Source: an uncultured Alphaproteobacteria bacterium
GTDB taxonomy: Bacteria; Pseudomonadota; Alphaproteobacteria; Micropepsales; Micropepsaceae
Direction of reading: 5' to 3'
NCBI GenBank assembly: GCA_937865685.1
Contig: CALMGU010000102.1
Span: 596-24,595, forward strand
DNA length: 24,000 bases
Positions 2,047-24,000 of this stretch are shown one piece after another. The position numbers and the translations under genes were made by a program. The first letter of the stretch is position 1; every line of letters starts with the position of its first letter. The notes beneath the pieces were generated by a model. The model was not told the origin of the DNA, made no database searches, and worked only from the letters and a program-made list of their open reading frames with translations.

Positions 2047-3393
2047 TCATTCCGCCGGGGATTGCGGCAGCGCCTTGTTGTCCGGCCGCTCCCAGCGCTT
2101 GGTCACCAGCGAGACCAGCCAGACCATCGCCGCGACGGCCACGGCCGCTGTCGCCCATCGCAATCCGCTCATCAGTCCATCGCGCGTGAATTCGGGCCAG
2201 GGAAATTGCGACAGGGCGTCGAACCGGTCTTCCATCCAATGCCAGGCCTGATGGGCGACCAGCGCCGAAAGAATGATAGTCCCCAGCCGCTGTGCCACCA
2301 CGCGGCGGAACAGGAAATTCAGGAATGGCACGAACAGGACCAGCATCACCAGCTGGCCGATCTCCACCCCGACATTGAAAGCGAGCAGCGACGGCAGGAC
2401 ATGGTCGCCCGCGAATTGCATGGTCTCGCGCAGGACGAATGAAAATCCGAAGCCATGCACCAGGCCGAAGAAGAAGGTGATGATCCAGCGCCGCGCCGGA
2501 TGTTCGACGACGATATTTTCCAGCGCCATGTAGACGATGGAGACCGCGATCAGCATTTCGATCAGGGGCGGGAACCAGAGCGCGTCCGGCGCCACGCCAT
2601 AGGCCGAGGCGATCAGGGTAATGGAATGGGCAATGGTGAAGGCCGTGACGACCGGGATCAACGGGCGGACGCGGCGGAACGGAATCACCAGGCAGAAGAG
2701 GAAGAGCAGGTGATCGATGCCTTCCAGGATGTGATAGAAGCCCATCACCACGAACAGCCAGGCCGCGTGATACCAGGTGGGATCCAGACGTACGAGGCCG
2801 GCATCGCCTTGCAGGTCATAGGCGCGGGCCGTGCTGCCCGGCGGCATGAACAGGACGGTGGTGGTTTCATGCTGCGCCAGCCGGTCGAAGGCGGCGTGCA
2901 TGGAGAAATAGGATTTGTCCGACTGGATCGGATATTCCAGCAGGACGTCGAGCTTGCCCTGTTCCCAGTAGAGCGTGGTCTCCGGCGGCAGCGCCGGCCC
3001 CGTCACATGGGCAAGAGCGGTCTCGTAATTGGAGAAGGAGCGGTCCGAATCCAGCGACATGCGGGTCGAGGCGATGGTTGGCTTGGGAAGCTCCTTGTCC
3101 CCTTCATACATTTTCAGGGTTTCGAGCAGGATCACGGTCGCGGCGGCGCGTAGCGACGGATCGACCTTGGCCATATCGACATAGCCGCCGGCCCGGCGGG
3201 GATATTCCGCATCGACATAAGTGGTGAGGGGGACGCGGATCATCACCTGAAGCTTGTGGCCTTCAGGCTTGACGAACATCTGCAAGGTCGCTTCGACCGG
3301 AATATTATGGGCGAAAGCGGGGAGCGGCAGGCTTAAAAAAGTCAGCGCCGCCAGTAGCAGAGCAAACTGGCGGCGCATGAGCTTATTCAACAT
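2047..3393 (-). CDS. HupE/UreJ-type (HupE_UreJ_2-like) membrane metal transporter with a large N-terminal periplasmic domain
   Basis: Signal peptide LSLPLPAFA|HNIP, then about 190 aa of soluble domain, then a polytopic membrane part. The membrane part has HILEGIDHLLFLF and GLVHGFGFSF motifs typical of HupE/UreJ proteins. It lies 22 nt downstream of the NHL gene on the same strand. Confidence 0.7.
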   Translation of the reverse strand: MLNKLMRRQFALLLAALTFLSLPLPAFAHNIPVEATLQMFVKPEGHKLQVMIRVPLTTYVDAEYPRRAGGYVDMAKVDPSLRAAATVILLETLKMYEGDKELPKPTIASTRMSLDSDRSFSNYETALAHVTGPALPPETTLYWEQGKLDVLLEYPIQSDKSYFSMHAAFDRLAQHETTTVLFMPPGSTARAYDLQGDAGLVRLDPTWYHAAWLFVVMGFYHILEGIDHLLFLFCLVIPFRRVRPLIPVVTAFTIAHSITLIASAYGVAPDALWFPPLIEMLIAVSIVYMALENIVVEHPARRWIITFFFGLVHGFGFSFVLRETMQFAGDHVLPSLLAFNVGVEIGQLVMLVLFVPFLNFLFRRVVAQRLGTIILSALVAHQAWHWMEDRFDALSQFPWPEFTRDGLMSGLRWATAAVAVAAMVWLVSLVTKRWERPDNKALPQSPAE

Positions 3394-3415
3394 TCGTACC
3401 TAACGAGACAACAGA

Positions 3416-4657
3416 CTATTTGTTGTCGGGACGGGCCACGCCCTGGTCGAACTTGACGACCTTAGCCATGCCTTTGTTGATGAACTTCTGGATACGACGG
3501 CCTTCATAGGTTTCCGTCGTGAACAGATTGCCCTTGGAGTCGATGGCGATCGAGTGCACGCCATGGAATTCGCCGGCATGGTTGCCGCCGTCGCCGAAGG
3601 TGGTGACGGGCGTCAGGGTCTGGCGGTCGATCACGACCACCTGTTCATTCACGCCGTCCGCCATGAAGATGTACTTCTGCTGCGGATCCTTGGAGAAGGC
3701 GATATCCCAGACCGAACCGTCGGTCATGGTGTTGGTCTTGTAGTACATCTCCTTCACGAACTTGCCTTCGGGCGTGAAGACCTGCAGGCGGTCATTCACG
3801 CGGTCGCAGACATAGACCATCCGGTCGACCGACATGTCGGCGCAGTGAACCGGGTTGCGGAACTGCTGGGCGTTTTTATCGCCCGGCTTGTATGCCGGCA
3901 GCGGCGTATCATCCGGCTTGTTGCCATAAGCACCCCAGAAGCGCTTCATCTTGCCGGTGTCGGCGTCGATGACCGCAACGCGGTGGTTCAGGTAACCGTC
4001 GGCGACATAGGCTTCGTTGGCCTTGGCATCGACGAACACTTTGGCGACGCGGCCGAAGCTGTCCGGGTCGTTCGAATTGGCCGCGAAACCGGCCTGCGAG
4101 GCTTCCGCGTTGGCGTCGGCAGCGGCACCGGCTTTGCGGCGCGCGCCGGCCTTGCCGTACTGCATCAGGAACTTGCCGTCCTGCGTGAACTTCAGGATGT
4201 GCGAGTCCGGACCGCCATTGCCGCCGATCCACACATTGCCCTTATGGTCCACGAAGATGCCGTGGTTGGATTCCGGCCAGTCATAACCCTGGCCCGGGCC
4301 GCCCCAGGCGTGAAGCAGATTGCCCGCTTCGTCGAATTCCAGAACCGGCGGCGCCGCCTGGCAGCACTCGCCAAGGCCGCGCTGCAGCTGATTGGTGGTG
4401 CGGTCCACGGTGTTGGCGCGATGCACCATCCAGATGTGATCATTGTTGTCGACCCACACGCCGATCGCCATGCCCATCACCCAGTGATTGGGAAGCGGCT
4501 TCGGCCAGAAAGGATCGACTTCGAATTTCGGCGCGGTCGCGCCCACCTGCGCAACGGCTTTACTTTGGAACGCGACTTGCGAGATGCCCAGCGCGCCGAG
4601 CAACACGGCGAAACTTGCGCCGATCGCAAAATTCCGGGAACGAAGAATATTTTTCAT
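3416..4657 (-). CDS. secreted NHL-repeat six-bladed beta-propeller protein (peptidyl-alpha-hydroxyglycine amidating lyase-like)
   Basis: N-terminal signal peptide. Repeated blade-like segments (HGIFVDHKGNVWIG, AYVADGYLNHRVAVIDADTGK, VYVCDRVNDRLQVFTPEGKF, IFMADGVNEQVVVIDR, HSIAIDSKGNLFTTETYEGRRIQKF). Strong RBS GGAGGA upstream of the ATG. Confidence 0.65.
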   Translation of the reverse strand: MKNILRSRNFAIGASFAVLLGALGISQVAFQSKAVAQVGATAPKFEVDPFWPKPLPNHWVMGMAIGVWVDNNDHIWMVHRANTVDRTTNQLQRGLGECCQAAPPVLEFDEAGNLLHAWGGPGQGYDWPESNHGIFVDHKGNVWIGGNGGPDSHILKFTQDGKFLMQYGKAGARRKAGAAADANAEASQAGFAANSNDPDSFGRVAKVFVDAKANEAYVADGYLNHRVAVIDADTGKMKRFWGAYGNKPDDTPLPAYKPGDKNAQQFRNPVHCADMSVDRMVYVCDRVNDRLQVFTPEGKFVKEMYYKTNTMTDGSVWDIAFSKDPQQKYIFMADGVNEQVVVIDRQTLTPVTTFGDGGNHAGEFHGVHSIAIDSKGNLFTTETYEGRRIQKFINKGMAKVVKFDQGVARPDNK

Positions 4658-4692
4658 TAAGGCTCCTCCAGCGAGCGAAGGGGCCCAATTTT

Positions 4693-4698
4693 ATTATA
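4693..4698 (-). promoter_or_regulatory. candidate -10 hexamer for the NHL/HupE operon
   Basis: The minus strand reads a perfect TATAAT, about 35 nt upstream of the ATG at 4657, inside a short AT-rich island in GC-rich DNA. No convincing -35 is visible. Confidence 0.25.
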
Positions 4699-4758
4699 TG
4701 CCCCCGACGGCCGCGAGGTTACACGAGGCACGGCCGTTCGCAAACACCTCCGCGTCCG

Positions 4759-4779
4759 CAAAACCCGGTCTGTGACCGG
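4759..4779 (-). terminator. candidate intrinsic terminator after the alpha/beta hydrolase gene
   Basis: The minus strand reads CCGGTC-ACA-GACCGG followed by GTTTTG, immediately after the stop at 4784. Confidence 0.45.
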
Positions 4780-4783
4780 AAAG

Positions 4784-5833
4784 TTACGGCTGAATTCTTG
4801 TCAGAATTGTATCGATTTCTATGCTGCGCGGCGCGGCCAAGCCGCCATATTTGGCGTCGATATTCTTGACCGCCTTTTGGGCATCGGCGCGGTTGCCGCT
4901 GGCGATCAGGGCATCCGCCTTGGCCAATTCGCCGGCAATTCCGGTTTCGATGGCGGCACGGCAAGCGGCCATCCGGTCCGGGTCCGGCCGCTCAGGCTCC
5001 AGCAGAGCCTGAAGCGCCCGCGACAGGATGGCAGGCGGCGCGACATCATGACCGGCGAAGGGCATGCGGATGCTCGCCACATCAGAGACGCACCAGTCCT
5101 GCATCGCGCGCTTGCTGCGCATCTCCGATTCGACATTGGCGGCATCATGGTCGCCGGTCACATAGAGAAGCCGCGTCCCGGTCTGAAACTGCCGGAACAG
5201 GGACGCGGAGGGCAGCGGCTCGGTGATGGTGCCGATCACGTCGCTGCCCGAGTTCAGCAAGGCGCCATGAAAAAGATCGGGATAGGCCAAGGCCAGGCGC
5301 AGTGCCATGCGCGCGCCGCCCGACATGCCGCCGACATAGACTTGCGCGGAATCGATCGGATATTGCGCCATCACATTCTGCGCCGCGATCAGGGCCAGGG
5401 GCTCGCGGCGGCTGATAATGTCTTCCTCATTGCCCGATCTGGCGGCCGTCACGAAAATCATCCCGAACTGGTCCAGCACCGGACCCCAGCCCTGGGGCAA
5501 TTGCGCCTTCTGCCAAGGCGGGACGAACACCATCAGGCGATAGCCCTGGGGCGGCCTGGTCGCCGGCACATAGACAAGGAATTTCTCTGCCGCCAGGTCG
5601 ACCGAAGTTTCGCCAATGGTTTTTCCCTTTTGCGCAAGGTCGCGCCGGATACCGGCGAGGGTCAGGGGTGTGAAAACCCGGCCGAGAAGCTCCGAATTGC
5701 GGGCCAGCGCCGGATAGCTGGAAAAAGTCACATCTTCGCGCAGTCCGGAAGCCGGCGGGCTTTCCTGCGCCATGGCGAGGCCGCCACAGGCCGCTCCTAT
5801 CACTGCAATTGCGAGAAAACGGATGCGCACCAT
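4784..5833 (-). CDS. secreted alpha/beta-hydrolase fold esterase (PHB-depolymerase/LpqC-like family)
   Basis: Signal peptide FLAIAVIGAACGGLAMA. Nucleophile elbow GGMSGGARMA (G-x-S-x-G). A later GDHD and AGHD supply candidate Asp/His residues. RBS GAGGGGA upstream of the ATG. Confidence 0.6.
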   Translation of the reverse strand: MVRIRFLAIAVIGAACGGLAMAQESPPASGLREDVTFSSYPALARNSELLGRVFTPLTLAGIRRDLAQKGKTIGETSVDLAAEKFLVYVPATRPPQGYRLMVFVPPWQKAQLPQGWGPVLDQFGMIFVTAARSGNEEDIISRREPLALIAAQNVMAQYPIDSAQVYVGGMSGGARMALRLALAYPDLFHGALLNSGSDVIGTITEPLPSASLFRQFQTGTRLLYVTGDHDAANVESEMRSKRAMQDWCVSDVASIRMPFAGHDVAPPAILSRALQALLEPERPDPDRMAACRAAIETGIAGELAKADALIASGNRADAQKAVKNIDAKYGGLAAPRSIEIDTILTRIQP

Positions 5834-5985: not shown

Positions 5986-6075
5986 GGACAGGTGGTCGAG
6001 TGGTCGATGGCACCGCACTCGAAATGCGGCGAGCCTGCAAGGGCTCCGTGGGTTCGAATCCCACCCTGTCCGCCA
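5986..6075 (+). tRNA. tRNA-Ser (anticodon CGA)
   Basis: Acceptor stem GGACAGG / CCTGTCC, discriminator G and encoded CCA. Anticodon stem CCGCA / TGCGG with loop CTCGAAA. Long variable arm and T-loop GGTTCGAATCC. Collinear with canonical bacterial tRNA-Ser, 90 nt. Confidence 0.93.
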
Positions 6076-6223: not shown

Positions 6224-6484
6224 ATGTCTGAAGGTCAGACACCATCCACTGCCATGCGGGTATTCACGGTCGAGTGGGATCCGATGCAGAAGAAATTTAT
6301 TGCCCGGAATGATCTGTGTGAACCGCTCGGCATTACGGCGGATCGGGCCAATGCCATCGGCATTGCAATCCGCAGCGCCAACAATGCGGCGCGAGCAGGA
6401 AGCTTCATTGCCGTGAAAGTGCTGCTCCAGAGCGGCAAGTATCGCACCGAATACATCACCCAGCCGGTGCCCGACCGCCGCTGA
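6224..6484 (+). CDS. hypothetical small protein (86 aa), orphan ORF next to tRNA-Ser
   Basis: Only a plausible ORF in a lower-GC stretch. Third-codon positions are visibly less GC-biased than in neighbouring genes. No motif recognised with confidence. A possible sigma70-like promoter lies upstream: TTGTAA (6154-6159), 16-nt spacer, TAAAAG (6176-6181). Confidence 0.4.
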   Translation: MSEGQTPSTAMRVFTVEWDPMQKKFIARNDLCEPLGITADRANAIGIAIRSANNAARAGSFIAVKVLLQSGKYRTEYITQPVPDRR

Positions 6485-6665
6485 GCGCGGTCTACGCGCA
6501 AAATGCCAATCCGTGCGCCGCACCATGCCGGTGTTTGCAGCGAATGCCGGGTTTCGGCGACATCTTCGGGATAATTCGCTTGTGCGTCTGGTGGAGAATT
6601 CCCACTATCCGCCACGTTGTTTGACTGCGCCGTTCGGCTGGCGATGTCGAAGGGGATATCTGGGG

Positions 6666-7190
6666 ATGAGCACCAACCAGCTTCTGGCCGCGATGGATGA
6701 GGTGCTCGAGCAGGGCGAGGTCCTGCTGATGGGGTTGAGCGACGCTCAATATGCCGATGCGGATGGTTCGCGGACCTCTGTCGGCGCGCATTACCGCCAC
6801 AGCCTGGAACACTTCAAGCTGCTGCTGGAGACAGTGAACGGGCCCGAAATCGATTACGACCGGCGCGAACGGGATGCCGAACTGGAGCAGGAACGGCTTT
6901 TCGCGCTCCAAGTGACGCGGGATTTCCGCCATGCCGCCCGGTTTCTCTCCACCCTCAATCCCGACCGGCCGATCCAGGCGCGCACCAAGATTTCCTATGC
7001 CGCGTCCGGGGCCTGTTCGGCGCCTTCGACCGTCGGCCGCGAGATCATGTTTGCGGTGTCCCACGCCATTCATCATTACGCGCTGATCGGCATGATCTGC
7101 GACCTGCGCGCACTGCCCGTGCCGCCGGATTTCGGCGTCGCGCCGTCCACCATCGAATATCAAAAGACCATCGCGCGCAGATCGGCATGA
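6666..7190 (+). CDS. DinB-family (DinB_2-like) four-helix-bundle metalloprotein
   Basis: His-containing motifs GAHYRHSLEHF and VSHAIHHYALI fit the DinB His triad. RBS AAGGGGA precedes the ATG at 6666. The track start at 6513 adds an Arg-rich extension. The stop overlaps the next start (ATGA at 7187-7190). Confidence 0.6.
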   Translation: MSTNQLLAAMDEVLEQGEVLLMGLSDAQYADADGSRTSVGAHYRHSLEHFKLLLETVNGPEIDYDRRERDAELEQERLFALQVTRDFRHAARFLSTLNPDRPIQARTKISYAASGACSAPSTVGREIMFAVSHAIHHYALIGMICDLRALPVPPDFGVAPSTIEYQKTIARRSA

Positions 7191-8806
7191 CCATGCTCGA
7201 CCTCACCTGGGCCAAGGCGGCGTCGCTGTTTTTCCTCACTTTCTTTTCCGAGGACGCGGCGACCTTGGGCGGGGCTGCACTCAGCGCGGCCGGGCAGCTG
7301 GCGATGCCGTTCGGCCTGGCTGCGTGTTTTCTGGGAATCTGGCTGGGGGATCTGGGGCTTTATGCGCTGGCGCGCTATTTCGGCCGTCCCTTTCTCGGCC
7401 GCGCCTGGGTGAAGCGCCGGGTCAATGAAGACCGGCTGGCGAAAAGCGAAGCCTGGTGGAAGAAGCGGGGGCTGCTGGTGCTGCTGGTGGCTCGTTTCGT
7501 TCCGGGTCTGCGCCTCCCCACTTATTTGATTGCCGGCACCTTGGCGGTTCCCTTCCTGTCCTTTGCGGCGGTGACGGCCTTGATGGGGCTGGTGTGGGTG
7601 CCGCTGGTGTTCACCCTGGTCTGGGCTGCGGGCACCCAGGCCGTGGCCTGGTATGCGGCGGCCAAAGGCACGCTGATCGTCACGGCGGTGATTGTTCTGG
7701 TTCTTGCGGGCCTGCCGCTTCTGTTCCGCGAACGGGTCCGCGCCTGGCTCCGCTCGCCGGCAACGCAGCGTTGGCTGCAATGGGAATTCTGGCCGGCGAA
7801 CCTCTTCTATATTCCCATCGGGCTGAATTATGCGCGCCTGGCGATCAAATATCGCGGCCTTAACCTGCCCACCATCGCCAATCCCGGCATGCTCACCGGC
7901 GGCATTGTCGGGGAGTCGAAAGACGAGATTCTTCGCGACCTGTTCCGCACCTCGCCCGCTTTCACCGCTCGCGCCGGTTTGATCGCGTGTGGACCGCTGG
8001 ACCAGCGGATGGCGCAGTTCCAGCGTCTTTGCACGGAGCATGGCCTCAGTCTGCCGGTGGTGCTGAAGCCCAATATCGCCCAGCGCGGCAGCGGCTTTAA
8101 GCTGGTGCGCGTCGCGACCGATGCCCGCGATTATCTGGAACAAGTGTCCGGCGACGTACTGGTGCAGGAATATGCGGCGGGGCCCTGCGAGGTAGGGATT
8201 TTCTATTACCGCTTTCCGCATGAGGAGCGGGGGCGCATCTTTGCGATCACCGAAAAGATCTTTCCCTCGGTCACGGGTGATGGCCGACGCACGGTGGAAC
8301 AGCTGATCCTGGATGACAGCCGGGCAGCGATCATGGCCCGCACCTACCTGCATCGCCACCGCGCCATCCGTGGCAAGGTGCTGGCCGCGGGCGAGCGTCT
8401 CAAGCTGGTGGAAGCGGGCAATCACTGCCAGGGCTGCATCTTCCGCGACGGGATGCATCTGTGGAGCCCCGAGCTGGAAGCGCGCATCGACCAGATCTCG
8501 CGCCAGGTGCCCGACTTTTTCATTGGCCGCTACGACGTTCGATATGCCGAGGATGGCGACATCCTGGCAGGTGAGAATTTCAAGATTCTGGAGCTGAACG
8601 GCGCGGCCTCTGAAGCCACCAGCATCTATGACAGCCGTAATACCATCTTCCAGGCTTATGCCACCCTGTTCCGGCAATGGGATCTGGTCTTCGCCATCGG
8701 AGCGGCCAATCGCAAGCTGGGACATCGCCCCGCGACCGTGAGCCTCTTGCGGGACGAATGGAAGAAGTACCAGCAGCTTAGCGCCTGCTATCCCATGGCC
8801 GACTGA
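7187..8806 (+). CDS. fusion protein: N-terminal DedA/VTT (SNARE-associated) membrane domain plus C-terminal ATP-grasp carboxylate-amine ligase domain
   Basis: Residues 1 to about 190 are polytopic with the DedA-type motif LVARFVPGLRLPTYLIAG. The C-terminal half has ATP-grasp signatures VVLKPNIAQRGSGFKLV, VLVQEYAAGPCEVGIFYY and FKILELNGAASEATS (E-x-N Mg site). Confidence 0.7.
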   Translation: MTMLDLTWAKAASLFFLTFFSEDAATLGGAALSAAGQLAMPFGLAACFLGIWLGDLGLYALARYFGRPFLGRAWVKRRVNEDRLAKSEAWWKKRGLLVLLVARFVPGLRLPTYLIAGTLAVPFLSFAAVTALMGLVWVPLVFTLVWAAGTQAVAWYAAAKGTLIVTAVIVLVLAGLPLLFRERVRAWLRSPATQRWLQWEFWPANLFYIPIGLNYARLAIKYRGLNLPTIANPGMLTGGIVGESKDEILRDLFRTSPAFTARAGLIACGPLDQRMAQFQRLCTEHGLSLPVVLKPNIAQRGSGFKLVRVATDARDYLEQVSGDVLVQEYAAGPCEVGIFYYRFPHEERGRIFAITEKIFPSVTGDGRRTVEQLILDDSRAAIMARTYLHRHRAIRGKVLAAGERLKLVEAGNHCQGCIFRDGMHLWSPELEARIDQISRQVPDFFIGRYDVRYAEDGDILAGENFKILELNGAASEATSIYDSRNTIFQAYATLFRQWDLVFAIGAANRKLGHRPATVSLLRDEWKKYQQLSACYPMAD

Positions 8807-8819
8807 TCCGATCCATCTC

Positions 8820-9539
8820 ATGTGCACCGTTTCGTTTCTGCCGACACGCCAAGGATTCATGCTGGCGATGAATCGCGACGAACAAGTCTCGCGGCCTCGT
8901 GCCCTGGCGCCGGGCCGCCGCTGGACCGGCATGCGCGCATCGCTTTTTCCTAGCGAGGCGGGCGGCGGCACCTGGATCGGCGCCAGCGATGCGGGGCTCT
9001 CTCTCGCCCTGGTCAACTGGTATGCCAAGCCGCAGCGCGACCGCGCTTTGTGCGTCAGCCGGGGGATCATCATTCCGCATCTCTTGGCGGCCGAAAATCT
9101 GGCGGAGGTTGCCGCCATGTTCGCCGATCTGCCCCTGGCCAAGATCAATCCATTCCGGTTGATCGCGGCATCCTTGAAAGAGCGGCGCTTGTGCGAATGG
9201 CGCTGGGACGGCAAGCGCCTGACTTGCAGCCGGTTCGGGTGGAAGCGCCGGCACTGGTTCTCGTCCGGCTATGACGAAGCGCTCGCGAACAAAAAGCGCG
9301 CCGCGGTGGTGCGGGACATCGCCAAGCCGGCGCCCGCAAGATTGCGCAAATTGCATCAATCCCATCTGCCGGACCAAGGGCCTTTTTCCATCTGCATGCA
9401 TCGCAAGGATGCCAAGACAGTCAGCTATACGGAGATCGTGGCGACGAAATCCGGTGCGGCAATGCGCTATGCCGCTGGATCGCCTTGCACCAAAAAACCG
9501 GGAACGCCCCGCCTGCTGTCATTCGCAAGCGGGGCGTAA
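8820..9539 (+). CDS. NRDE-family protein (TANGO2-like, predicted Ntn-hydrolase-type fold)
   Basis: Begins MCTVSFL with Cys directly after the initiator Met. Contains the eponymous motif LAMNRDE. Lies 13 nt after the ATP-grasp gene on the same strand. Confidence 0.7.
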   Translation: MCTVSFLPTRQGFMLAMNRDEQVSRPRALAPGRRWTGMRASLFPSEAGGGTWIGASDAGLSLALVNWYAKPQRDRALCVSRGIIIPHLLAAENLAEVAAMFADLPLAKINPFRLIAASLKERRLCEWRWDGKRLTCSRFGWKRRHWFSSGYDEALANKKRAAVVRDIAKPAPARLRKLHQSHLPDQGPFSICMHRKDAKTVSYTEIVATKSGAAMRYAAGSPCTKKPGTPRLLSFASGA

Positions 9540-9542
9540 GAA

Positions 9543-10817
9543 TTAGCCGCGATAGAAGACGCGCCAGATTTTTCCCGTCTGGCTGTCGGTGATGTAGAGC
9601 GAGCCGTCCGGCCCAACCGCCACGCCATCGGGGCGTGCGGGATAGTCATTCTGGGTTTTGATCGGGGCGGAGCCGGCGAATTTGTCCGCGAAGACTTCGA
9701 ATTTGCCAGAAGCTTTTCCGTCATTGCCGATGGGCTGGAACACCACCGCGCCCGGGCGCTGTTCGCCGGAGCGGTTCCAGGAGCCGTGAAACGCGATGAA
9801 GGCGCCGCCGCGATAAGAAGCGGGGAACTGCTTGCCGTCATAGAATTTCACATCGACGGGCGCCCAATGCGCGGGAAAGCTGGCCGTCGGCAAGGTGAAT
9901 TTGGCGCAGCGCGCCGCTTCCCTGCCGTCGCCGCCATATTCGGGGCTGAGCAGAAGCTTCTGCTGGCGATAGTCGAAATAGCAATAGGGCCAGCCGAAAT
10001 CCGCGCCCTGTTCGGCGCGATACATCACTTCGGCGGGACCGTCATTGTTATCTTCGGCGGTGAAATGTTCCGGATAGAGCAGATCGATCTGGTCGCGGTT
10101 GTTCATCACTGTGTAGATCGCGCCATGGGCCCAGGCCACATCGGGCTCTTGGCGCAAACCGGTGACGATGCGGCTGCCGTCTTCCTGTTTCTGGCTCAGC
10201 TTGGCGGCGCTGAATTTCCAGATGCCGCCATGCTTCTCCAGGAGCGGGCAGGGATCCTGGCCGGGCGAATCCTTCAACCGGTCGCGCGCCTGGCAGGCGT
10301 TGGATGGGCTTCCCACATTGACGTAGAAATTGCCTTTGTCGTCGAAGGCGATGCCTTTGTCGGCATGCTCGCGGGCGCTGTCGAAACCGGAAACGACGAT
10401 TTCCGGCTGGCCTTGCGGCACCAACTGGCCTGGCGTCATCTTATAACGAACCACCTGGGTCGGCTGGGCGACATACAGATAGCCGTCATGGAGCGCGATG
10501 CCGGTGGCGCTGCCATTGTCGGCAAGGCCATTGCCGAATTTCTGCTGCACGTCGAAATGGCCGTCGCCCTTGGAATCGTGCAGCGCCACCAAGCCGCCGG
10601 GCTTGCCGCCGCTGGCGCGCAAGGCGACATAAAGGTCGCCATTGGGCGCGGCCACCGCATGGCGCGCATAGCCCAGATTTTCGGCAGCCACCATGGCGCA
10701 GAAGCCCCTGGGCAACGTGATGCCGCCATTGTCCGGCGCGCAAGTCGGTGCCGCCGAAGCGGGCGCCGCCGCCATCGCGGACAATCCCAAAATCGAAACC
10801 GTCAGCTTCAACATCAT
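9543..10817 (-). CDS. secreted PQQ-dependent sugar (sorbosone/glucose) dehydrogenase-family beta-propeller
   Basis: Signal peptide LGLSAMAAAPASA. Family-like segments HAVAAPNGDLYVA, GIAFDDKGNFYVNVGSPSNAC, GADFGWPYCY and PDGVAVGPDGSLYITDSQTGKIWRVFY. RBS GGGAGA upstream. Confidence 0.7.
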   Translation of the reverse strand: MMLKLTVSILGLSAMAAAPASAAPTCAPDNGGITLPRGFCAMVAAENLGYARHAVAAPNGDLYVALRASGGKPGGLVALHDSKGDGHFDVQQKFGNGLADNGSATGIALHDGYLYVAQPTQVVRYKMTPGQLVPQGQPEIVVSGFDSAREHADKGIAFDDKGNFYVNVGSPSNACQARDRLKDSPGQDPCPLLEKHGGIWKFSAAKLSQKQEDGSRIVTGLRQEPDVAWAHGAIYTVMNNRDQIDLLYPEHFTAEDNNDGPAEVMYRAEQGADFGWPYCYFDYRQQKLLLSPEYGGDGREAARCAKFTLPTASFPAHWAPVDVKFYDGKQFPASYRGGAFIAFHGSWNRSGEQRPGAVVFQPIGNDGKASGKFEVFADKFAGSAPIKTQNDYPARPDGVAVGPDGSLYITDSQTGKIWRVFYRG

Positions 10818-10980: not shown

Positions 10981-11883
10981 CTATTGCAGCGGCACCGCAT
11001 AGGCGGCGAATACGCCGGGGTCCTGACCCTTGAGCGGTTCGCGCCGGTAGTTGAATTTGGATTCCAGTTCCCAGGCGGTGTTTCCCACCACCGTCACTGC
11101 CACCGGCACATTCAGGCCCTGATTCAAGACTGTGACGGTGGCCTTGTCGCCGTCCAGAACGATGCGGTCGAGACGGCCCTGGCCTTCGGCCAGAAGAATG
11201 TCGCCATTGGGTGCCAGCCGCATGCCATCCGGATTCTTCAGGGGCTGGCTGGTGGCGATCTCCGTGACTTTCACGTTTTCTCCACTCCCCTCGACGCGGA
11301 GCAGGCGCGCGCTGCTATAGGTGTTCACATAGAGTTTGCCGTCACGGGTGAAGACCAGCCCGTCGATCGATTTGAGATCCGGTCCCGACGCGAATTCCGT
11401 CAATTGCCTGGCGCCGGGCACCAGCCGCAAGATGCGGCTTCCGGATGTATCGGCGACCATGGCCGCCCCGTCGGGCGCGATGGCAATATCGTTGCACACG
11501 CCGCCGCCAGGGAAGGGATATTTGGCGCGGAATTTCCCGCCCGGCAGATCGAACGCCATCAGCGACGTATCGATATGCGCCGGATCGTCGGTGGAACAGA
11601 CCCAGAGCGTGCGGCCGTCGGCCAGGACGCCGAGGACCGAATGCATTCCTTCCGTGCCGGCCGGGATGAAGGAAGAGGCTTTGTCCTGTCCCGCCGCGGC
11701 TTTGTAGATCCCGCCTTTGGCGAGGCTGCCGATATAGACGTTGCCTGCCGCATCCGAACTCAGGCTTTCGGGAAAGACGCCGGTGTCATCGATGACGATG
11801 CGGTCGGCGGCCAAAGCGGGCGTGGTAACCGCCGCCAGGGTGCAGGCGAATAGCATGATGGGCAGATTGCGAAAGGCGATCAT
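10981..11883 (-). CDS. secreted SMP-30/gluconolactonase/LRE-like (strictosidine-synthase-like) beta-propeller protein
   Basis: Start chosen at MIAFRNLPIMLFACTLAAVTTPALA (signal peptide) with a GGAGG RBS. Repeated blade segments (AAGNVYIGS, NDIAIAPDGAAMVADTSGSRILR, IDGLVFTRDGKLYVNT, PDGMRLAPNGDILLAE). The track start at 12030 adds 49 aa with no support. Confidence 0.6.
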   Translation of the reverse strand: MIAFRNLPIMLFACTLAAVTTPALAADRIVIDDTGVFPESLSSDAAGNVYIGSLAKGGIYKAAAGQDKASSFIPAGTEGMHSVLGVLADGRTLWVCSTDDPAHIDTSLMAFDLPGGKFRAKYPFPGGGVCNDIAIAPDGAAMVADTSGSRILRLVPGARQLTEFASGPDLKSIDGLVFTRDGKLYVNTYSSARLLRVEGSGENVKVTEIATSQPLKNPDGMRLAPNGDILLAEGQGRLDRIVLDGDKATVTVLNQGLNVPVAVTVVGNTAWELESKFNYRREPLKGQDPGVFAAYAVPLQ

Positions 11884-11903
11884 GAAACCTCCGGGTCCGA
11901 ATA

Positions 11904-11919
11904 ATATGTATATACATAT
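11904..11919. promoter_or_regulatory. perfect 16-bp AT-only palindrome ATATGTATATACATAT, candidate operator in a divergent promoter region
   Basis: Read directly and checked as its own reverse complement. Lies 21 nt upstream of the ATG at 11883 (minus gene) and 130 nt upstream of the dipZ ATG, inside otherwise GC-rich DNA. Confidence 0.5.
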
Positions 11920-12048
11920 GTTCTTGCCGATTTTCCATATCGGTTCGCGCGTCATTGCCACCGCTCCGCGCGGAAAACGGGTTGCCGCAATTGCGCCGCT
12001 CAGCGGACGCTGCGAAGATGCCCGCTCCAAGACGCGGACGAATTGTCA

Positions 12049-20114: not shown

Positions 20115-21026
20115 CTAAGTTCCCGCCGGGCACTGCGCCTTGTCCATCAGCCAGTCCCGGAACAGAGGCATGGCGGAAGACTGCGCCCGGCTTATCAAGC
20201 GCGTGAGCCAATAACATCCCAGATCCGCTTCGATTGCGAAAGGCTGGATCAGCAGGCCCGCTTCCAGCTCGCGCCGGAACATGGCCACCGGCACTAGCGC
20301 CACCCCTTCGCCCCGCAAAGCCGCCTGCACCATGATCCAGGACGAATCGAACAGCGGTCCCCGCGCCGCGATATTCGGCACGCCGGCTTTTTCCAGCCAT
20401 TGCGGCCAGTCGGATGCACGGTAGGAGCGCAGCAGGGGAAATTCCGCGAGATCGGGCGGCATACGCAGGCGCTTCGCGGTTTGCGGCGAACAGACCGCGG
20501 AGCATGGCGCATCCATGACCTTTTCAGAATGGATGCCGTGCCAGGCGCCGTCGCCGAAGCGGATGGCATAGTCCAGGCTTTCGCCCGCCAGATCGACTTT
20601 GTTGTTGTTGGTGAGAAGCCTGAGATCGATCGCGGGGTTGCGGGCCTGGAAATCCGGCAGCCTCTCCAGCAGCCAGCCCACCGCGAACGTGCCCACCGCG
20701 CCGACGGTCAGCGCTTCCTTCAAGCGTCCGCCCTCGAACTGGCCCAGCGCACGCGACAAGCGCTCGAATGTTTCGCTTACTGGCACCATCAGGGCGCGGC
20801 CTTCATCGGTGAGGACCAGTCCGCGCGGCGTGCGGCGGAAAAGCTCCAGGCCCAGCTTTTCCTCCAGCCCTTTGACCTGGTGGCTGATCGCCGCCTGGGT
20901 CACCGACAATTCCAGCCCGGCGCGGGTGAAGGACAGGTGCCGTGCCGCCGCCTCGAAGGCACGCAGCGCACTGAGCGAAACGGAGGAGATGTTGATTGGG
21001 TTATTAGAAAAACTTGTGGCAGACAC
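20115..21026 (-). CDS. LysR-family transcriptional regulator (AmpR/PenR-like, divergent from the beta-lactamase gene)
   Basis: [41 protein letters not shown], then a typical LysR substrate-binding domain. A GTG start at 21026 (AAGGA RBS) gives 303 aa. The alternative GTG at 21083 would leave only 14 nt before the divergent bla ATG, so it is less likely. Confidence 0.8.
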
Positions 21027-21097
21027 GAGACAATGTCCTTTGCGCGCGAAATCCGGCTTGCGGCATGGTGGCAACCTAAGCACAGAGAGGCGTGGTC
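21027..21097. promoter_or_regulatory. divergent LysR / beta-lactamase control region
   Basis: A 71-nt interval between divergent starts, the usual location of LTTR operators. It contains the dyad TTGC-N9-GCAA (cTTGCggcatggtgGCAAc). No exact T-N11-A box could be assigned with confidence. Confidence 0.35.
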
Positions 21098-21973
21098 ATG
21101 AATAATTTTCATCGCAGAGGTTTTTTGCTGGCCGGTGCCGGCCTGGTGGCAAGCGGTCTGCCGGTCCGGGCGGCGGGGAATTTCCGCCAGGCCATGGCGG
21201 CGCTGGAAGCGCGTCTGGGCGGGCAGGCCGGGCTTTCAGCCCTCGACATGGGAAGCGGCCGGACTCTGTCCTGGCGCGGTGGCGAGCGTTTCGCCATGTG
21301 CTCGTCTTTCAAATGGGTTCTGGCGGCGGCGGTCCAGAAAGAGGTGGAGGAGAGCCGTCTGAAATCCGGCCAGGTGATCCGCTATTCCGCGAAAGCACTT
21401 TTGCCCCATTCCCCGCGCACCGAGGCGCATCTGAAGGATGGCGGCATGACGGTGGATGATCTATGCGCCGCGGTGGTGGAGGCCAGCGACAATGGCGGCG
21501 CGAACCTGCTGCTGGAGCGCGTGGGCGGGCCTGAGGGTCTGACGCGCTTCTTGCGCGAGGCTGGCGACACCGTCACGCGGCTGGACCGAAATGAACCCAG
21601 CCTGAATTCCAATCGGCCGGGTGATCCGCGCGACACCACCACACCGGATGCGATGGTGGGGACGATGAAGCGAATTTTGACCGGCGATGTGTTGCAGCCG
21701 GTTTCGCGGGACAAGCTGCTGGACTGGCTGCGCAACAGCGAGACAGGCGCAAAGCGCTTGCGCGCGGGGTTGCCTGCCGGCTGGAGCGTGGGCGACAAGA
21801 CCGGCACGGGCACGCGGGGCGCGACAGTCGACAATGCCATCGCCTGGCCGCCGGGACGGGCCCCCATCCTGATCGCGGCCTATCTCAGCGGTTCGGCCAA
21901 GCCCATCGAGGCGCTGGAAGCCGGACATGCGGAAATGGGCCGCCTGACCGCCGATTCGTTCGCCAAAGGCTAA
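21098..21973 (+). CDS. class A beta-lactamase with twin-arginine signal peptide
   Basis: S-x-x-K in MCSSFK, SDN in ASDNGGAN, E166/N170 in RNEPSLN, KTG in GDKTGTG. The N-terminus MNNFHRRGFLLAGAGLVASGLPVRA has a Tat-type RRxFL motif. GAGAGG RBS upstream. Confidence 0.9.
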   Translation: MNNFHRRGFLLAGAGLVASGLPVRAAGNFRQAMAALEARLGGQAGLSALDMGSGRTLSWRGGERFAMCSSFKWVLAAAVQKEVEESRLKSGQVIRYSAKALLPHSPRTEAHLKDGGMTVDDLCAAVVEASDNGGANLLLERVGGPEGLTRFLREAGDTVTRLDRNEPSLNSNRPGDPRDTTTPDAMVGTMKRILTGDVLQPVSRDKLLDWLRNSETGAKRLRAGLPAGWSVGDKTGTGTRGATVDNAIAWPPGRAPILIAAYLSGSAKPIEALEAGHAEMGRLTADSFAKG

Positions 21974-22653
21974 GGCGCGCGGGAAGGCTCGGCACCGGCG
22001 GGCGGTGGCAGGGCCAAGGCCCATTGCACGATCTGGTCCACCGCCTTTGCCAGCGCCACATTCAAGGCCTGAACCACGGCATCGACGCTGTTCGCCGAGG
22101 CGGGTTCGGTGAGGTTGACGGAAAAATTCGCCAGGATCTTGCGTGACTTGGTATCGGACATATGGGCAATGATCGTCACCGCCACATTCGGCGCGCCGTC
22201 GGGGGTGGCGTAGCGCGCCTCGAAGTCACGCAATTCGGTGGAGAGTTGATAATCCGATTGCAGCGCGTCTTCATCCCGTGACACCGCATCGATGCGGCCG
22301 CTGGCCTCGAAGCCGGCCAAGAGTGCCGTCTGCACCAGATCGGGCAGGCGGTCAGGCCAAGCGGCCTTGGCGTAATAGTCGAGCTGCATGCCGTTTCTGG
22401 CCAATGCAATGCGCGCACTGTCCAGATTGCCCGCTGCAGCGGGTTTTTGAATTACAAGCGCCCAGCCGACTTTGGCGCCGGAAGACTGCGTGGCCGGTAC
22501 CGTTGGACGCAGTGCATAAATCTGCGGCGCGTCGGGTGGGCCGATCAACTTGTCCAGGCTGCCGCATGCCGTGAGCGCCAACGAGGACCCGGCGATCAGG
22601 ACCAGCCGGCGATCCAAATGAAGCAGGGAATCATTTCTTTTCATTGGGGTCAT
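21970..22653 (-). CDS. ABC-transport auxiliary lipoprotein (DUF330/PqiC-like) of the MCE operon
   Basis: Lipobox LALTAC. Located immediately downstream of, and overlapping, the MlaD/MCE gene. The start could be 22653 or 22644. Confidence 0.65.
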   Translation of the reverse strand: MTPMKRNDSLLHLDRRLVLIAGSSLALTACGSLDKLIGPPDAPQIYALRPTVPATQSSGAKVGWALVIQKPAAAGNLDSARIALARNGMQLDYYAKAAWPDRLPDLVQTALLAGFEASGRIDAVSRDEDALQSDYQLSTELRDFEARYATPDGAPNVAVTIIAHMSDTKSRKILANFSVNLTEPASANSVDAVVQALNVALAKAVDQIVQWALALPPPAGAEPSRAP

Positions 22654-23509
22654 ATCCCTTGCGGCGGTCGCCGAACAAAAGCTTGGTGGGCTCCCGGTTG
22701 AGCTGGTCGGAGAAGCGGGTGAGGCTGGTCACCAGCCGCCGCATCTCATTGACCAGGCTGGAAAGCTGGCTCAAGGCATCGCCCTTGAGGAAGGCATCCG
22801 CATCGTCCGCCACTTTGTTGAATTTGCTCACCGTCACATCGACGTGATCGAGCGTGGGCTTCAGGGTGGCGGACGCATCGCGCAGATTGGCCGTGGCGGT
22901 ATTGGCGTTCTTGATCGTGGCGTCGATATCGGCCGAACGCTTGGCGATGGCGGAAGTCGTTTGATCCAGGTTGCTCAGAACATTGGTCAGGGATTTGCGG
23001 TTCTGGTCGCTGAGGACATCGTTGAGACGGGTCACGGCGACATTGAGCTTGGCCACCACTTCGGGCGCCGACTGTTCCAGCTGTTGCAAGGTCGATTGCT
23101 TGGCGCGGATGACGGGATAGTCCTGGCCTTCCTTGGCCGTCAGGACGGGCGATTTGGCGGTGCCGCCGCTGATCTCGACATAGGTGCCCCCGGTCAGGCC
23201 CTGGCTTTCGATCGAGGCCTGGCTGTCCTCGCGGATGTTGAGATTGGGCTGGACCTGCATGGTGACGATCACGCTTTGCGGATCGTTGGGATTGAATTTG
23301 AGCTCGGTGACCCGGCCCACATCGATGCCGTTGTAGCGGGTGACGGTGCCCTTGCCGAGGCCCGTCACCGGACCTTTGAAATAGGTCTGGTAATAAGCCC
23401 ATTCCTGGCTGTACTGCGCGCCCGCGAGCCACATGATCGTGATCACCAGCCCGATGACGCAGGCCAGCACGAAGGCGCCGACCGCGACGTAGTTGGCCTT
23501 GGTTTCCAA
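22631..23509 (-). CDS. MlaD/MCE-family substrate-binding protein
   Basis: N-terminal TM anchor (ANYVAVGAFVLACVIGLVITIMWL). MCE domain (GLGKGTVTRYNGIDVGRVTEL...). Long helical Ala/Asn/Thr-rich C-terminus. Confidence 0.8.
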   Translation of the reverse strand: METKANYVAVGAFVLACVIGLVITIMWLAGAQYSQEWAYYQTYFKGPVTGLGKGTVTRYNGIDVGRVTELKFNPNDPQSVIVTMQVQPNLNIREDSQASIESQGLTGGTYVEISGGTAKSPVLTAKEGQDYPVIRAKQSTLQQLEQSAPEVVAKLNVAVTRLNDVLSDQNRKSLTNVLSNLDQTTSAIAKRSADIDATIKNANTATANLRDASATLKPTLDHVDVTVSKFNKVADDADAFLKGDALSQLSSLVNEMRRLVTSLTRFSDQLNREPTKLLFGDRRKGYDPNEKK

Positions 23510-23518
23510 GCATGCCTC

Positions 23519-24000
23519 CTAACGCAGCCCGGCCAGCGCGGCGTGCCCGCGGGGACCGGAGAAATATTCGTGAATCCAGGGCGTGGTGTCTTTGCGCAAT
23601 TCCTCGATCGTTCCGGTCTTGATCTTCTTGTCGACCAGGACGGCGATGCGGTCGGTGATGGCGGCAAGACTGTCCAGGTCGTGCGTGACCATGAAGACCG
23701 TCAAGCCCAGGCCTTCCTGAAGCTCGGCGATCAGTTCGTCGAATTGGTTGGCGGAAATCGGGTCCAGGCCCGAAGTCGGTTCGTCCAGGAACAGCAGCTC
23801 CGGATCGAGCGCCAAAGCGCGGGCAAGACCCGCGCGCTTTTTCATGCCGCCGGAAAGCTCGGACGGAAGCTTTTGCGCCGTGTCGGGCGGCAATCCCACC
23901 AGCGCGATCTTCATCGCCGCGATCTCGTCCATCAATTCCTGGGACATGGGCGTATATTCGCGCAAGGGCACCTGGATATTTTCCGCGATCGTCTGGGAGG
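23519..24000 (-). CDS. MlaF-like ABC transporter ATP-binding protein, 5' end outside the window
   Basis: ABC signature LSGGMKKRAGLARAL, Walker B LLFLDEPTSGLD and H-loop VTHD. The reading frame stays open upstream of the GTG at 23971 to base 24000 (..SQTIAENIQVPLREY..), so the Walker A region lies beyond the window. Confidence 0.85.
   Translation of the reverse strand, partial: SQTIAENIQVPLREYTPMSQELMDEIAAMKIALVGLPPDTAQKLPSELSGGMKKRAGLARALALDPELLFLDEPTSGLDPISANQFDELIAELQEGLGLTVFMVTHDLDSLAAITDRIAVLVDKKIKTGTIEELRKDTTPWIHEYFSGPRGHAALAGLR

Follow-up and report, generated by a model that had tools for sequence, protein, structure and literature searches.

The window analysed here, a stretch of 24,000 nucleotides on contig CALMGU010000102.1 of an uncultured alphaproteobacterium of the Micropepsaceae, contains a cassette of three genes, which encode a DinB-fold protein, a fusion of a DedA membrane domain to an ATP-grasp ligase module (DedA::ATP-grasp) and a protein of the NRDE/TANGO2 family. 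We propose that this cassette is the core of a widespread membrane-lipid module, which would carry out an ATP-dependent amide modification or remodelling of aminolipids of the ornithine-lipid type and their translocation by the DedA domain. We assign a probability of about 45% to this reading. An earlier note on this DNA, made from the letters alone, had suggested a pathway that builds, trims or transfers an amide-linked metabolite, lipid head group or peptide tag. We now prefer the lipid head group among these three options, since the cassette often has OlsB/OlsA-like or OlsF-like genes beside it or in its operon, while the chemistry itself continues to be a prediction.

The gene of the DinB-fold protein (174 amino acids) extends over positions 6666..7190 of the plus strand, with the ATG at 6666 and the TGA at 7188-7190. 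Alignments of homologues obtained by tblastn begin at this ATG and not at the upstream GTG at 6513. The stop of the DinB gene and the start of the fusion gene overlap by four nucleotides (ATGA, 7187..7190, plus strand), an arrangement read from the sequence that probably entails translational coupling of the two genes. The fusion protein of 539 amino acids is composed of a membrane domain of the DedA/VTT type (residues 1 to about 195; 7187..7771, plus strand) and the ATP-grasp module (residues about 196-539; 7772..8806, plus strand), the stop codon being the TGA at 8804-8806. It is separated from the NRDE gene by a spacer of 13 nucleotides (8807..8819, plus strand), also read from the sequence, in which no obvious Shine-Dalgarno sequence was seen. 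The NRDE gene (8820..9539, plus strand; ATG at 8820, TAA at 9537-9539) encodes 239 amino acids starting with MCT. A convergent gene on the minus strand follows, its stop codon beginning at 9543, 3 nucleotides past the NRDE stop. No convincing promoter or terminator was found within the three-gene unit. The earlier note had described three genes on the same strand with this overlap, this spacer and this close convergent neighbour, and all coordinates were verified.

Among 8,000 scored candidates, 2,856 relatives of the fusion protein were obtained at E ≤ 0.001. Gene neighbourhoods were collected by a genome scan (47 loci), which yielded Rhizomicrobium-like Alphaproteobacteria, Acidobacteriota, Verrucomicrobiota, Eisenbacteria, Bdellovibrionota and one Chitinophagales genome (Bacteroidota), and by a metagenome scan with a diverse alignment (80 more loci). 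Using the window proteins in tblastn, we found the order DinB, DedA::ATP-grasp, NRDE kept almost everywhere, across six phylum-level groups. When only loci with enough flanking sequence were counted, the NRDE gene was directly adjacent downstream of the ATP-grasp gene, i.e. within 400 nucleotides on the same strand, in 91 of 105 informative loci and elsewhere in the locus in a further 8. Upstream, the DinB gene was directly adjacent in 90 of 101 informative loci and present elsewhere in 6. In the Chitinophagales locus (L044), DinB and NRDE are followed by a stand-alone ATP-grasp gene. With the gene order conserved in about 90% of more than 100 related loci, the arrangement can hardly be due to chance. 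Some tblastn matches were split into two adjoining segments, namely those of ATP-grasp in L043:6562-7585 and L046:6535-7541 and that of a propeller gene in L010:8370-9543, which suggests frameshifts or assembly errors in metagenome-assembled genomes.

Natural fusions point in the same direction. A HMMER search with the ATP-grasp half against 1.84 billion representatives gave 2,756 proteins at E ≤ 0.001, of which 1,095 reached E ≤ 1e-30. Architectures were determined for 150 representatives among the matches listed. DedA::ATP-grasp was the most frequent (79), followed by ATP-grasp alone and α/β-hydrolase::DedA::ATP-grasp (30 each), while eight proteins were α/β-hydrolase::ATP-grasp with DedA undetected by single-sequence search; six of these eight are long (715-848 amino acids). 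Two representatives (P0312 and P0333) combine NRDE::α/β-hydrolase::DedA::ATP-grasp, and one (P0374) is a DinB::ATP-grasp protein. Altogether, at least 117 of the 150 carry an N-terminal extension, with DedA detected in 111 and DinB in one. Since the families of all three window genes are thus seen fused to ATP-grasp somewhere, there is strong evidence of joint function. The co-location described in the earlier note extends across phyla, well beyond the source genome. Its view of a discrete three-gene unit was correct in so far as the triad recurs and fuses, but outside the Alphaproteobacteria, in most other phyla, a larger module is built around the triad.

The neighbours that gave rise to our reading are aminolipid synthase genes. 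The cassette is adjoined by genes for an N-acyltransferase of PF13444, whose best NCBIfam matches are OlsB equivalogs, and for an O-acyltransferase of PF01553, whose best matches are OlsA equivalogs. It is well established that ornithine lipids and related aminolipids are made in two steps by a PF13444 protein together with an LPLAT-type acyltransferase (PMC11631085). A divergent olsB or olsB-olsA occurs beside the cassette in many Acidobacteriota and in Verrucomicrobiota (L020, L040, L068). Other loci have the genes in one string: in L119, olsB (260-1111), olsA (1130-1888), DinB, the fusion gene (2227-3942) and NRDE (4028-4801) are contiguous on one strand, L052 harbors the eight genes olsB-olsA-X-YHS-DoxX-dinB-fusion-nrde, and L081 the series olsA-fusion-NRDE. 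In L049 and L050, olsB-olsA even overlap the start of an α/β-hydrolase::DedA::ATP-grasp gene. Genes for an OlsF-like bifunctional synthase were found twice, once adjoining the gene of P0312 (408 bits to the OlsF model, cut-off 620) and once divergent from the gene of P0275, a DedA::ATP-grasp protein of 643 amino acids. Among 53 more distant loci (ATP-grasp less than 62% identical to that of the window, at least 4 kilobases of upstream sequence), which are essentially non-alphaproteobacterial, 26 have an OlsB-like gene. By our own estimate, a single-copy gene would be met as a neighbour by chance at a rate well under 1%.

The ATP-grasp half had to be assigned by its fold, as no Pfam family, ATP-grasp families included, matches the C-terminal approximately 340 residues of the fusion protein. 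The AlphaFold2 (AF2) model of the fusion (mean predicted local distance difference test, pLDDT, 85.2; predicted template modelling score, pTM, 0.64) exhibits a membrane domain made of helices and, after it, an α/β domain. Foldseek matches of this model in the PDB were all ATP-grasp enzymes, aligned over about 250-300 residues with a probability of 1.0. The best was cyanophycin synthetase (7txv; E = 1.2e-9, 21% identity). GshF came next, and many D-Ala-D-Ala ligase (Ddl) structures ranked below cyanophycin synthetase with 8-16% identity. A PDB sequence search with the whole fusion protein gave no match, and a profile of 47 diverse ATP-grasp homologues retrieved only ATP-grasp enzymes from the PDB, CphA2 being the best with 30 bits. 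On this modelled structure, the C-terminal half of the fusion is an ATP-grasp fold. Residues K294, P295, Q327, R448, D450, E469 and N471 are invariant and occur in the expected order; judged by this pattern, they are the putative nucleotide- and Mg-binding set.

Within the ATP-grasp superfamily, the module does not belong to a known clade. Its NCBIfam scores are 22 bits for cyanophycin synthetase (cut-off 850) and 15 bits for archaeal Ddl (cut-off 500), and with no more than 30 bits in the PDB profile search, Ddl, RimK and cyanophycin synthetase, the clades that the earlier note had named as a possible objection, were ruled out. Cyanophycin synthetase lengthens the poly-aspartate backbone of a large polymer by the addition of an amino acid, and as the reaction of the nearest relative this is counted in favour of our reading. 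Its G domain, GshF and Ddl have the fold in common with the cassette protein, in which K294, E469 and N471 would be the counterparts of their ATP- and Mg-binding residues, but identities are only 9-21%, and their usual N-terminal domain is replaced here by a hydrophobic EFWP segment in addition to the DedA fusion. This segment belongs to the family-specific motif W-EFWP-x2-FY-P ... NPG-x3-GG-x2-GESK, which opens the module and is hydrophobic in its first part. Stand-alone ATP-grasp homologues retain it, and some gain an N-terminal hydrophobic stretch. Because the stand-alone forms keep this hydrophobic segment, the ATP-grasp module probably works at the membrane surface even without DedA. One stand-alone homologue from the representative library, P0302 (452 amino acids), has an N-terminal PG_binding_1 domain.

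The DedA half matches Pfam VTT_dom (PF09335) over residues 33-144 with 59.1 bits (cut-off 33.9) and forms the all-helical membrane domain of the AF2 model. Residues E22, D23, R103, P106, G107 and R109 are invariant in 42 sequences, the last four in the arrangement R103-x2-P106-G107-x-R109. The DedA transporters UptA and YqjA/YghB have the VTT/DedA domain and conserved acidic and arginine residues in common with it. However, the fusion protein stays below the UptA and DedA equivalog cut-offs; its best NCBIfam match, UptA (NF052604), reached 44.4 bits and not the required 250. It also differs from these transporters by the C-terminal enzyme, a fusion of which no description was found in the literature, where both terms were mentioned together only in passing.

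The third protein matches Pfam TANGO2 (PF05742) with 42 bits (cut-off 22.6). M1, C2, N18, R19, D20, E21, N66, C192, M193 and R195 are invariant in 34 sequences, and H194 is nearly so (at least 90%). In its AF2 model (pLDDT 86.3, pTM 0.87), the first strand is formed by residues 2-8 and starts at Cys2. Foldseek matched the model to CV2077 (3gvz) and human TANGO2 (8sv7, 9bwa), and then to bile-salt hydrolases and penicillin V acylases. Thus the predicted structure is, as the earlier note had anticipated, of the N-terminal nucleophile (Ntn) type, an α-β-β-α fold in which Cys2 heads the first strand, and we predict a Cys2 Ntn amidase or transferase. The nearest solved folds after CV2077 and TANGO2 are Cys-Ntn amidases of lipophilic amides, which we count in favour of aminolipids as substrates. 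To our knowledge, no TANGO2 or NRDE protein with demonstrated catalytic activity exists. The crystal structure of human TANGO2 disclosed an Ntn fold, whose C2 superposes on the nucleophile cysteine of AT, bile-salt hydrolase (BSH) and NAAA and was proposed as nucleophile (PMC12359130), and TANGO2 binds acyl-CoA or acyl chains through the NRDE motif (PMC11867700). Family membership, the invariant Cys2 with the NRDE motif and the α-β-β-α fold are common to the cassette protein and the TANGO2/NRDE family, but identities are only 16-20% to solved TANGO2/CV2077 structures and 8-15% to solved bile-salt hydrolases and penicillin V acylases. The partnership with ATP-grasp, DedA and DinB in operons or fusions sets it apart from other TANGO2/NRDE proteins, for which none was found in the literature.

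The DinB protein, a member of a superfamily that includes thiol transferases, matches Pfam DinB_2 (PF12867) with 26.4 bits (cut-off 24.8) and has no match in NCBIfam. In alignments of 94 and 20 sequences, the histidines H45, H133, H136 and H137 never vary, and H42 and H49 hardly do; R44, Y64, D65, R67, R69, R125 and E126 are also invariant among the 94. The pattern expected of the superfamily, a histidine on an early helix and HxxxH on the last one, is present, and these histidines are putative metal ligands. A profile of 20 homologues matched a single PDB entry, the DinB-like protein 3dka (E = 0.0018). Together with a C-terminal FGxAPST motif, the alignments indicate that this is a distinct, tight subfamily. 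The assignments to DinB, DedA, ATP-grasp and NRDE made in the earlier note were thus upheld, three of them by Pfam and that of ATP-grasp by the predicted fold. As far as can be judged from sequence, the cassette proteins are members of these superfamilies but of no characterised family within them.

The gene families, the folds, the conserved catalytic-type residues, the gene linkage, the fusions and the adjacency to aminolipid synthase genes are results of the analysis; for the substrate, the directions of the reactions and flipping by DedA, we infer the following scheme. Two elements, its own hydrophobic EFWP helix and the fused DedA domain, would keep the cytoplasmic ATP-grasp module at the inner face of the membrane. 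Using ATP, it would convert a carboxylate into an acyl-phosphate and join it to an amine, whereby the head group is extended or re-charged; in the simplest case, the carboxylate is the free α-carboxylate of the amino-acid head group. The DedA domain would shift the aminolipid, or its modified form, between the leaflets. Cys2 of the NRDE protein, bared by removal of Met1, may attack an amide bond in this lipid, for hydrolysis or transfer, by a chemistry like that of bile-salt hydrolases, penicillin V acylases and NAAA on amides of lipophilic substrates. The DinB protein could supply a His-liganded metal centre for a further step, be it hydrolysis, thiol transfer or oxidation.

The earlier note could name no described system of this composition. 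No published account of the cassette was found, nor of NRDE, ATP-grasp and DinB together, and the literature disclosed no link of NRDE, DinB or DedA with aminolipids or of ornithine lipid with DedA. The closest functional analogue may be MprF, an aminoacyl-phosphatidylglycerol synthase that is fused to a flippase, uses aminoacyl-tRNA and has cognate hydrolases of the PA0919 and AcvB/VirJ type. There, too, a cytoplasmic head-group enzyme is joined to a lipid-translocating domain, and a hydrolase of the product stands alongside. This is an analogy only, as there is no sequence relationship: the parts here are ATP-grasp and DedA, and no MprF-type Pfam or NCBIfam domain occurs in the cassette proteins. 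Reactions of the cerilipin type, known since the 1970s, correspond to the proposed chemistry. In Gluconobacter cerinus, taurine is transferred in an ATP-dependent manner to the carboxyl group of ornithine lipid, and the gene has not been identified (PMC12971839). As this amidation has no known gene, the proposed type of reaction exists without an assigned enzyme; an ATP-dependent amide on the head-group carboxylate of an aminolipid is what might be expected of an ATP-grasp protein encoded beside olsBA. However, the amine of cerilipin is taurine, and nothing ties the cassette to taurine. Lipid synthesis by OlsBA, OlsF and OlsHI is related to the cassette through the OlsB/OlsA-like and OlsF-like genes, its frequent neighbours and operon partners, but according to Pfam and NCBIfam, the three window proteins have no homology with OlsBA, OlsF, OlsHI or OlsC/D/E/G. 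Work on OlsH and OlsI demonstrates that an ATP-dependent ligase and an α/β-hydrolase can act on these lipids (PMC12493201).

A more specific version of our proposal would make the DedA::ATP-grasp protein a cerilipin-type enzyme that amidates the aminolipid carboxyl group and is fused to the first dedicated aminolipid flippase, the NRDE protein a Cys2 Ntn lipid amidase or transferase, which would be the first biochemical role defined for the TANGO2/NRDE family, and the DinB protein a metalloenzyme for this head group. In all these particulars together, it is rather unlikely to be correct.

Several observations weigh against an aminolipid substrate. The neighbouring acyltransferases score under the NCBIfam equivalog cut-offs, leaving the amino-acid specificity unsettled. 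Within the available sequence, OlsB, OlsA and OlsF were found neither in the window nor in the 19 loci most similar to it, whose ATP-grasp modules share at least 62% identity with that of the window, and about half of the more distant loci are without a nearby OlsB-like gene. The characterised structural relatives of the ATP-grasp module all act on soluble substrates, and one homologue (P0302) bears a peptidoglycan-binding domain. No member of the module has an assigned substrate, product or phenotype, and with a pTM of 0.64, the inter-domain geometry of the fusion model is uncertain. Finally, the ols genes could be co-regulated with the cassette and not part of the same pathway, because other neighbours point to redox or metal stress of the envelope.

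Among these other neighbours are a secreted YHS protein (named 'YHS domain-containing (seleno)protein' in NCBIfam) and a small DoxX-like membrane protein, in some loci with a DoxX_2 match, the genes of which precede DinB on the same strand. They belong to the same operon in Acidobacteriota, Verrucomicrobiota, Eisenbacteria and Bdellovibrionota (L019:4087-5017; L046:7566-8453; L135:3579-4497; L052:5254-6642). In L046 they are situated between the fusion gene and NRDE, and in L135 after a DinB::ATP-grasp gene. The DoxX-like gene was present in 46 and YHS in 32 of 79 loci, YHS being fused to an AhpC/TSA thioredoxin-fold domain in L052, L084 and L048. In 35 loci, a ferric-reductase-TM::Rieske protein followed by a protein of about 270 amino acids without known family was a recurrent neighbour. 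A short-chain dehydrogenase/reductase (SDR) gene comes directly after NRDE in 14 loci of the genome set, and an extracytoplasmic function (ECF) sigma factor is frequent, once with an NrsF anti-sigma factor. Examples of the Rieske, SDR and ECF sigma neighbours are L019:1207-2262, L048:2253-4222, L027:8448-9131, L022:8482-9138 and L135:483-1707. The Rieske, approximately 270-residue, SDR and ECF sigma genes suggest an envelope stress regulon. A search of the 24-kilobase window for homologues of the accessory genes (YHS, DoxX-like, OlsB, Rieske, SDR and ECF sigma) gave no match, nor were accessory-gene homologues found in the 19 closest loci. Two unrelated loci only have a CoaB-like (DFP) or CoaBC-like gene embedded in the module (L052:4268-5134; L135:4494-5714). 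These two genes are intriguing beside the published connection of TANGO2 with coenzyme A, yet with no more than two loci a general link to coenzyme A biosynthesis is unsupported.

Such neighbours could mean that the cassette is an envelope redox or metal-stress module, which is next to ols genes by shared stress regulation and whose product, newly made or recycled, is a small thiol or peptide with an amide linkage. The ATP-grasp module would then be GshF-like, DinB a thiol-dependent transferase, NRDE a trimming enzyme like EgtC of ergothioneine synthesis, and DedA an exporter. Apart from the abundance of DoxX-like and YHS genes, in many cases within the operon, the AhpC/TSA::YHS fusions and the recurrent ECF sigma factor with NrsF and ferric-reductase::Rieske genes, this is supported by GshF among the best fold matches, by the thiol transferases of the DinB superfamily and by the embedded CoaB/CoaBC-like gene, a cysteine ligase, in L052 and L135. 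But ols genes that overlap or abut the cassette in several unrelated arrangements, and the OlsF neighbours, would be left unexplained, as would the hydrophobic membrane-type segment of the stand-alone ATP-grasp homologues. Moreover, YHS and DoxX-like genes were not found in the window or in alphaproteobacterial loci, and the CoaB link is limited to two loci. We therefore regard this explanation as unlikely.

Alternatively, the cassette could be a de novo route to N-acyl amino acids or aminolipids. The ATP-grasp module would activate a fatty acid or 3-hydroxy fatty acid as an acyl-phosphate and join it to an amino acid. A fused α/β-hydrolase, where there is one, would attach the second acyl chain in the manner of OlsI, and the product would be flipped by DedA and degraded by NRDE. 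The precedent is the ATP-dependent amide ligase and α/β-hydrolase pair OlsH/OlsI, which has been proven for ornithine lipid (PMC12493201), and acyl-histidines made by an ATP-grasp enzyme in Legionella are among the examples cited in PMC11631085. An N-terminal α/β-hydrolase on 38-40 of the 150 representatives is consistent with this route, and the alphaproteobacterial cassette without ols neighbours would fit a self-sufficient pathway. However, co-operonic olsB and olsA would be redundant, Pfam detects no α/β-hydrolase domain in the window protein, and the nearest ATP-grasp relatives activate carboxylates of amino acids or peptides and not of fatty acids, which makes de novo synthesis improbable. 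A modification of cell-wall precursors, in which DedA would handle undecaprenyl-phosphate-linked intermediates like UptA, a Ddl-like ATP-grasp enzyme would add an amino acid to a lipid-linked precursor of peptidoglycan or a glycan and NRDE would be the corresponding amidase, is very improbable, since UptA, although the best NCBIfam match of the DedA half, reaches 44 bits against a cut-off of 250, the Ddl enzymes prominent among the fold matches have 8-16% identity and rank under cyanophycin synthetase, and mur, ddl, fts and glycosyltransferase genes are not recurrent in more than 130 neighbourhoods, the PG_binding_1 domain of P0302 notwithstanding.

Should aminolipids be the substrate, the cassette would offer a candidate type of gene for ATP-dependent amidation of ornithine lipids, and aminolipids would be a possible new substrate class of DedA transporters. 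At E ≤ 0.001, the unnamed ligase family counts no fewer than 2,756 cluster representatives. Its ATP-grasp domain goes unrecognised because the sources name members only 'DedA family', 'VTT domain-containing' or 'hypothetical' protein. Among the 240 nearest homologues of the fusion protein, none has a precomputed Pfam domain on the ATP-grasp half, most entries are nameless, and the names that are attached are generic or refer to metagenome-assembled genomes and to no cultured isolate. In humans, TANGO2 is a disease gene, and there is still dispute about its biochemical function. The cassette places a bacterial TANGO2/NRDE protein beside defined enzymes and, via the neighbours, links it to N-acyl amino acid lipids; it thereby makes the function of bacterial TANGO2 testable, and likewise the question of the gene for ATP-dependent amidation of ornithine lipid. 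It is carried by abundant soil lineages, most of them uncultured (Acidobacteriota, Verrucomicrobiota and Rhizomicrobium-like Alphaproteobacteria), and a new aminolipid modification, if true, would therefore bear on environmental lipidomics.

The surroundings of the cassette in the window were also inspected. The left boundary given in the earlier note, a tRNA-Ser and a small open reading frame, was confirmed: tRNA-Ser(CGA) is located at 5986-6075, and an open reading frame of 86 amino acids on the plus strand (6224-6484) lies between it and the cassette. This frame is kept upstream of the cassette in close relatives (L002-L006) with 64-88% identity and gave a sub-threshold CaiF/GrlA-like match (20 bits, cut-off 25); it may encode a small regulator. 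A recent tRNA-linked island was ruled out, as the G+C content of the cassette (0.59-0.65) is similar to that of the rest of the window and related genomes show synteny for the esterase and beta-propeller genes on its flanks. A defence system was likewise ruled out by zero PADLOC matches for all three proteins. Around the cassette, three genes on the minus strand (3416-4657, 9543-10817 and 10981-12030) encode beta-propeller proteins with NHL, GSDH or SGL-like matches, at least two of which have signal-peptide-like N-termini. The convergent one is probably unrelated to the cassette, because its synteny is limited to the closest alphaproteobacterial genomes. Towards the right end of the window, a LysR regulator gene is divergent from a gene of the class A beta-lactamase family (20118-21970), followed by a partial Mla-like ABC system for lipid transport (21970-23971) consisting of MlaD, an auxiliary lipoprotein and, at the edge of the window, a fragment of an ATPase.

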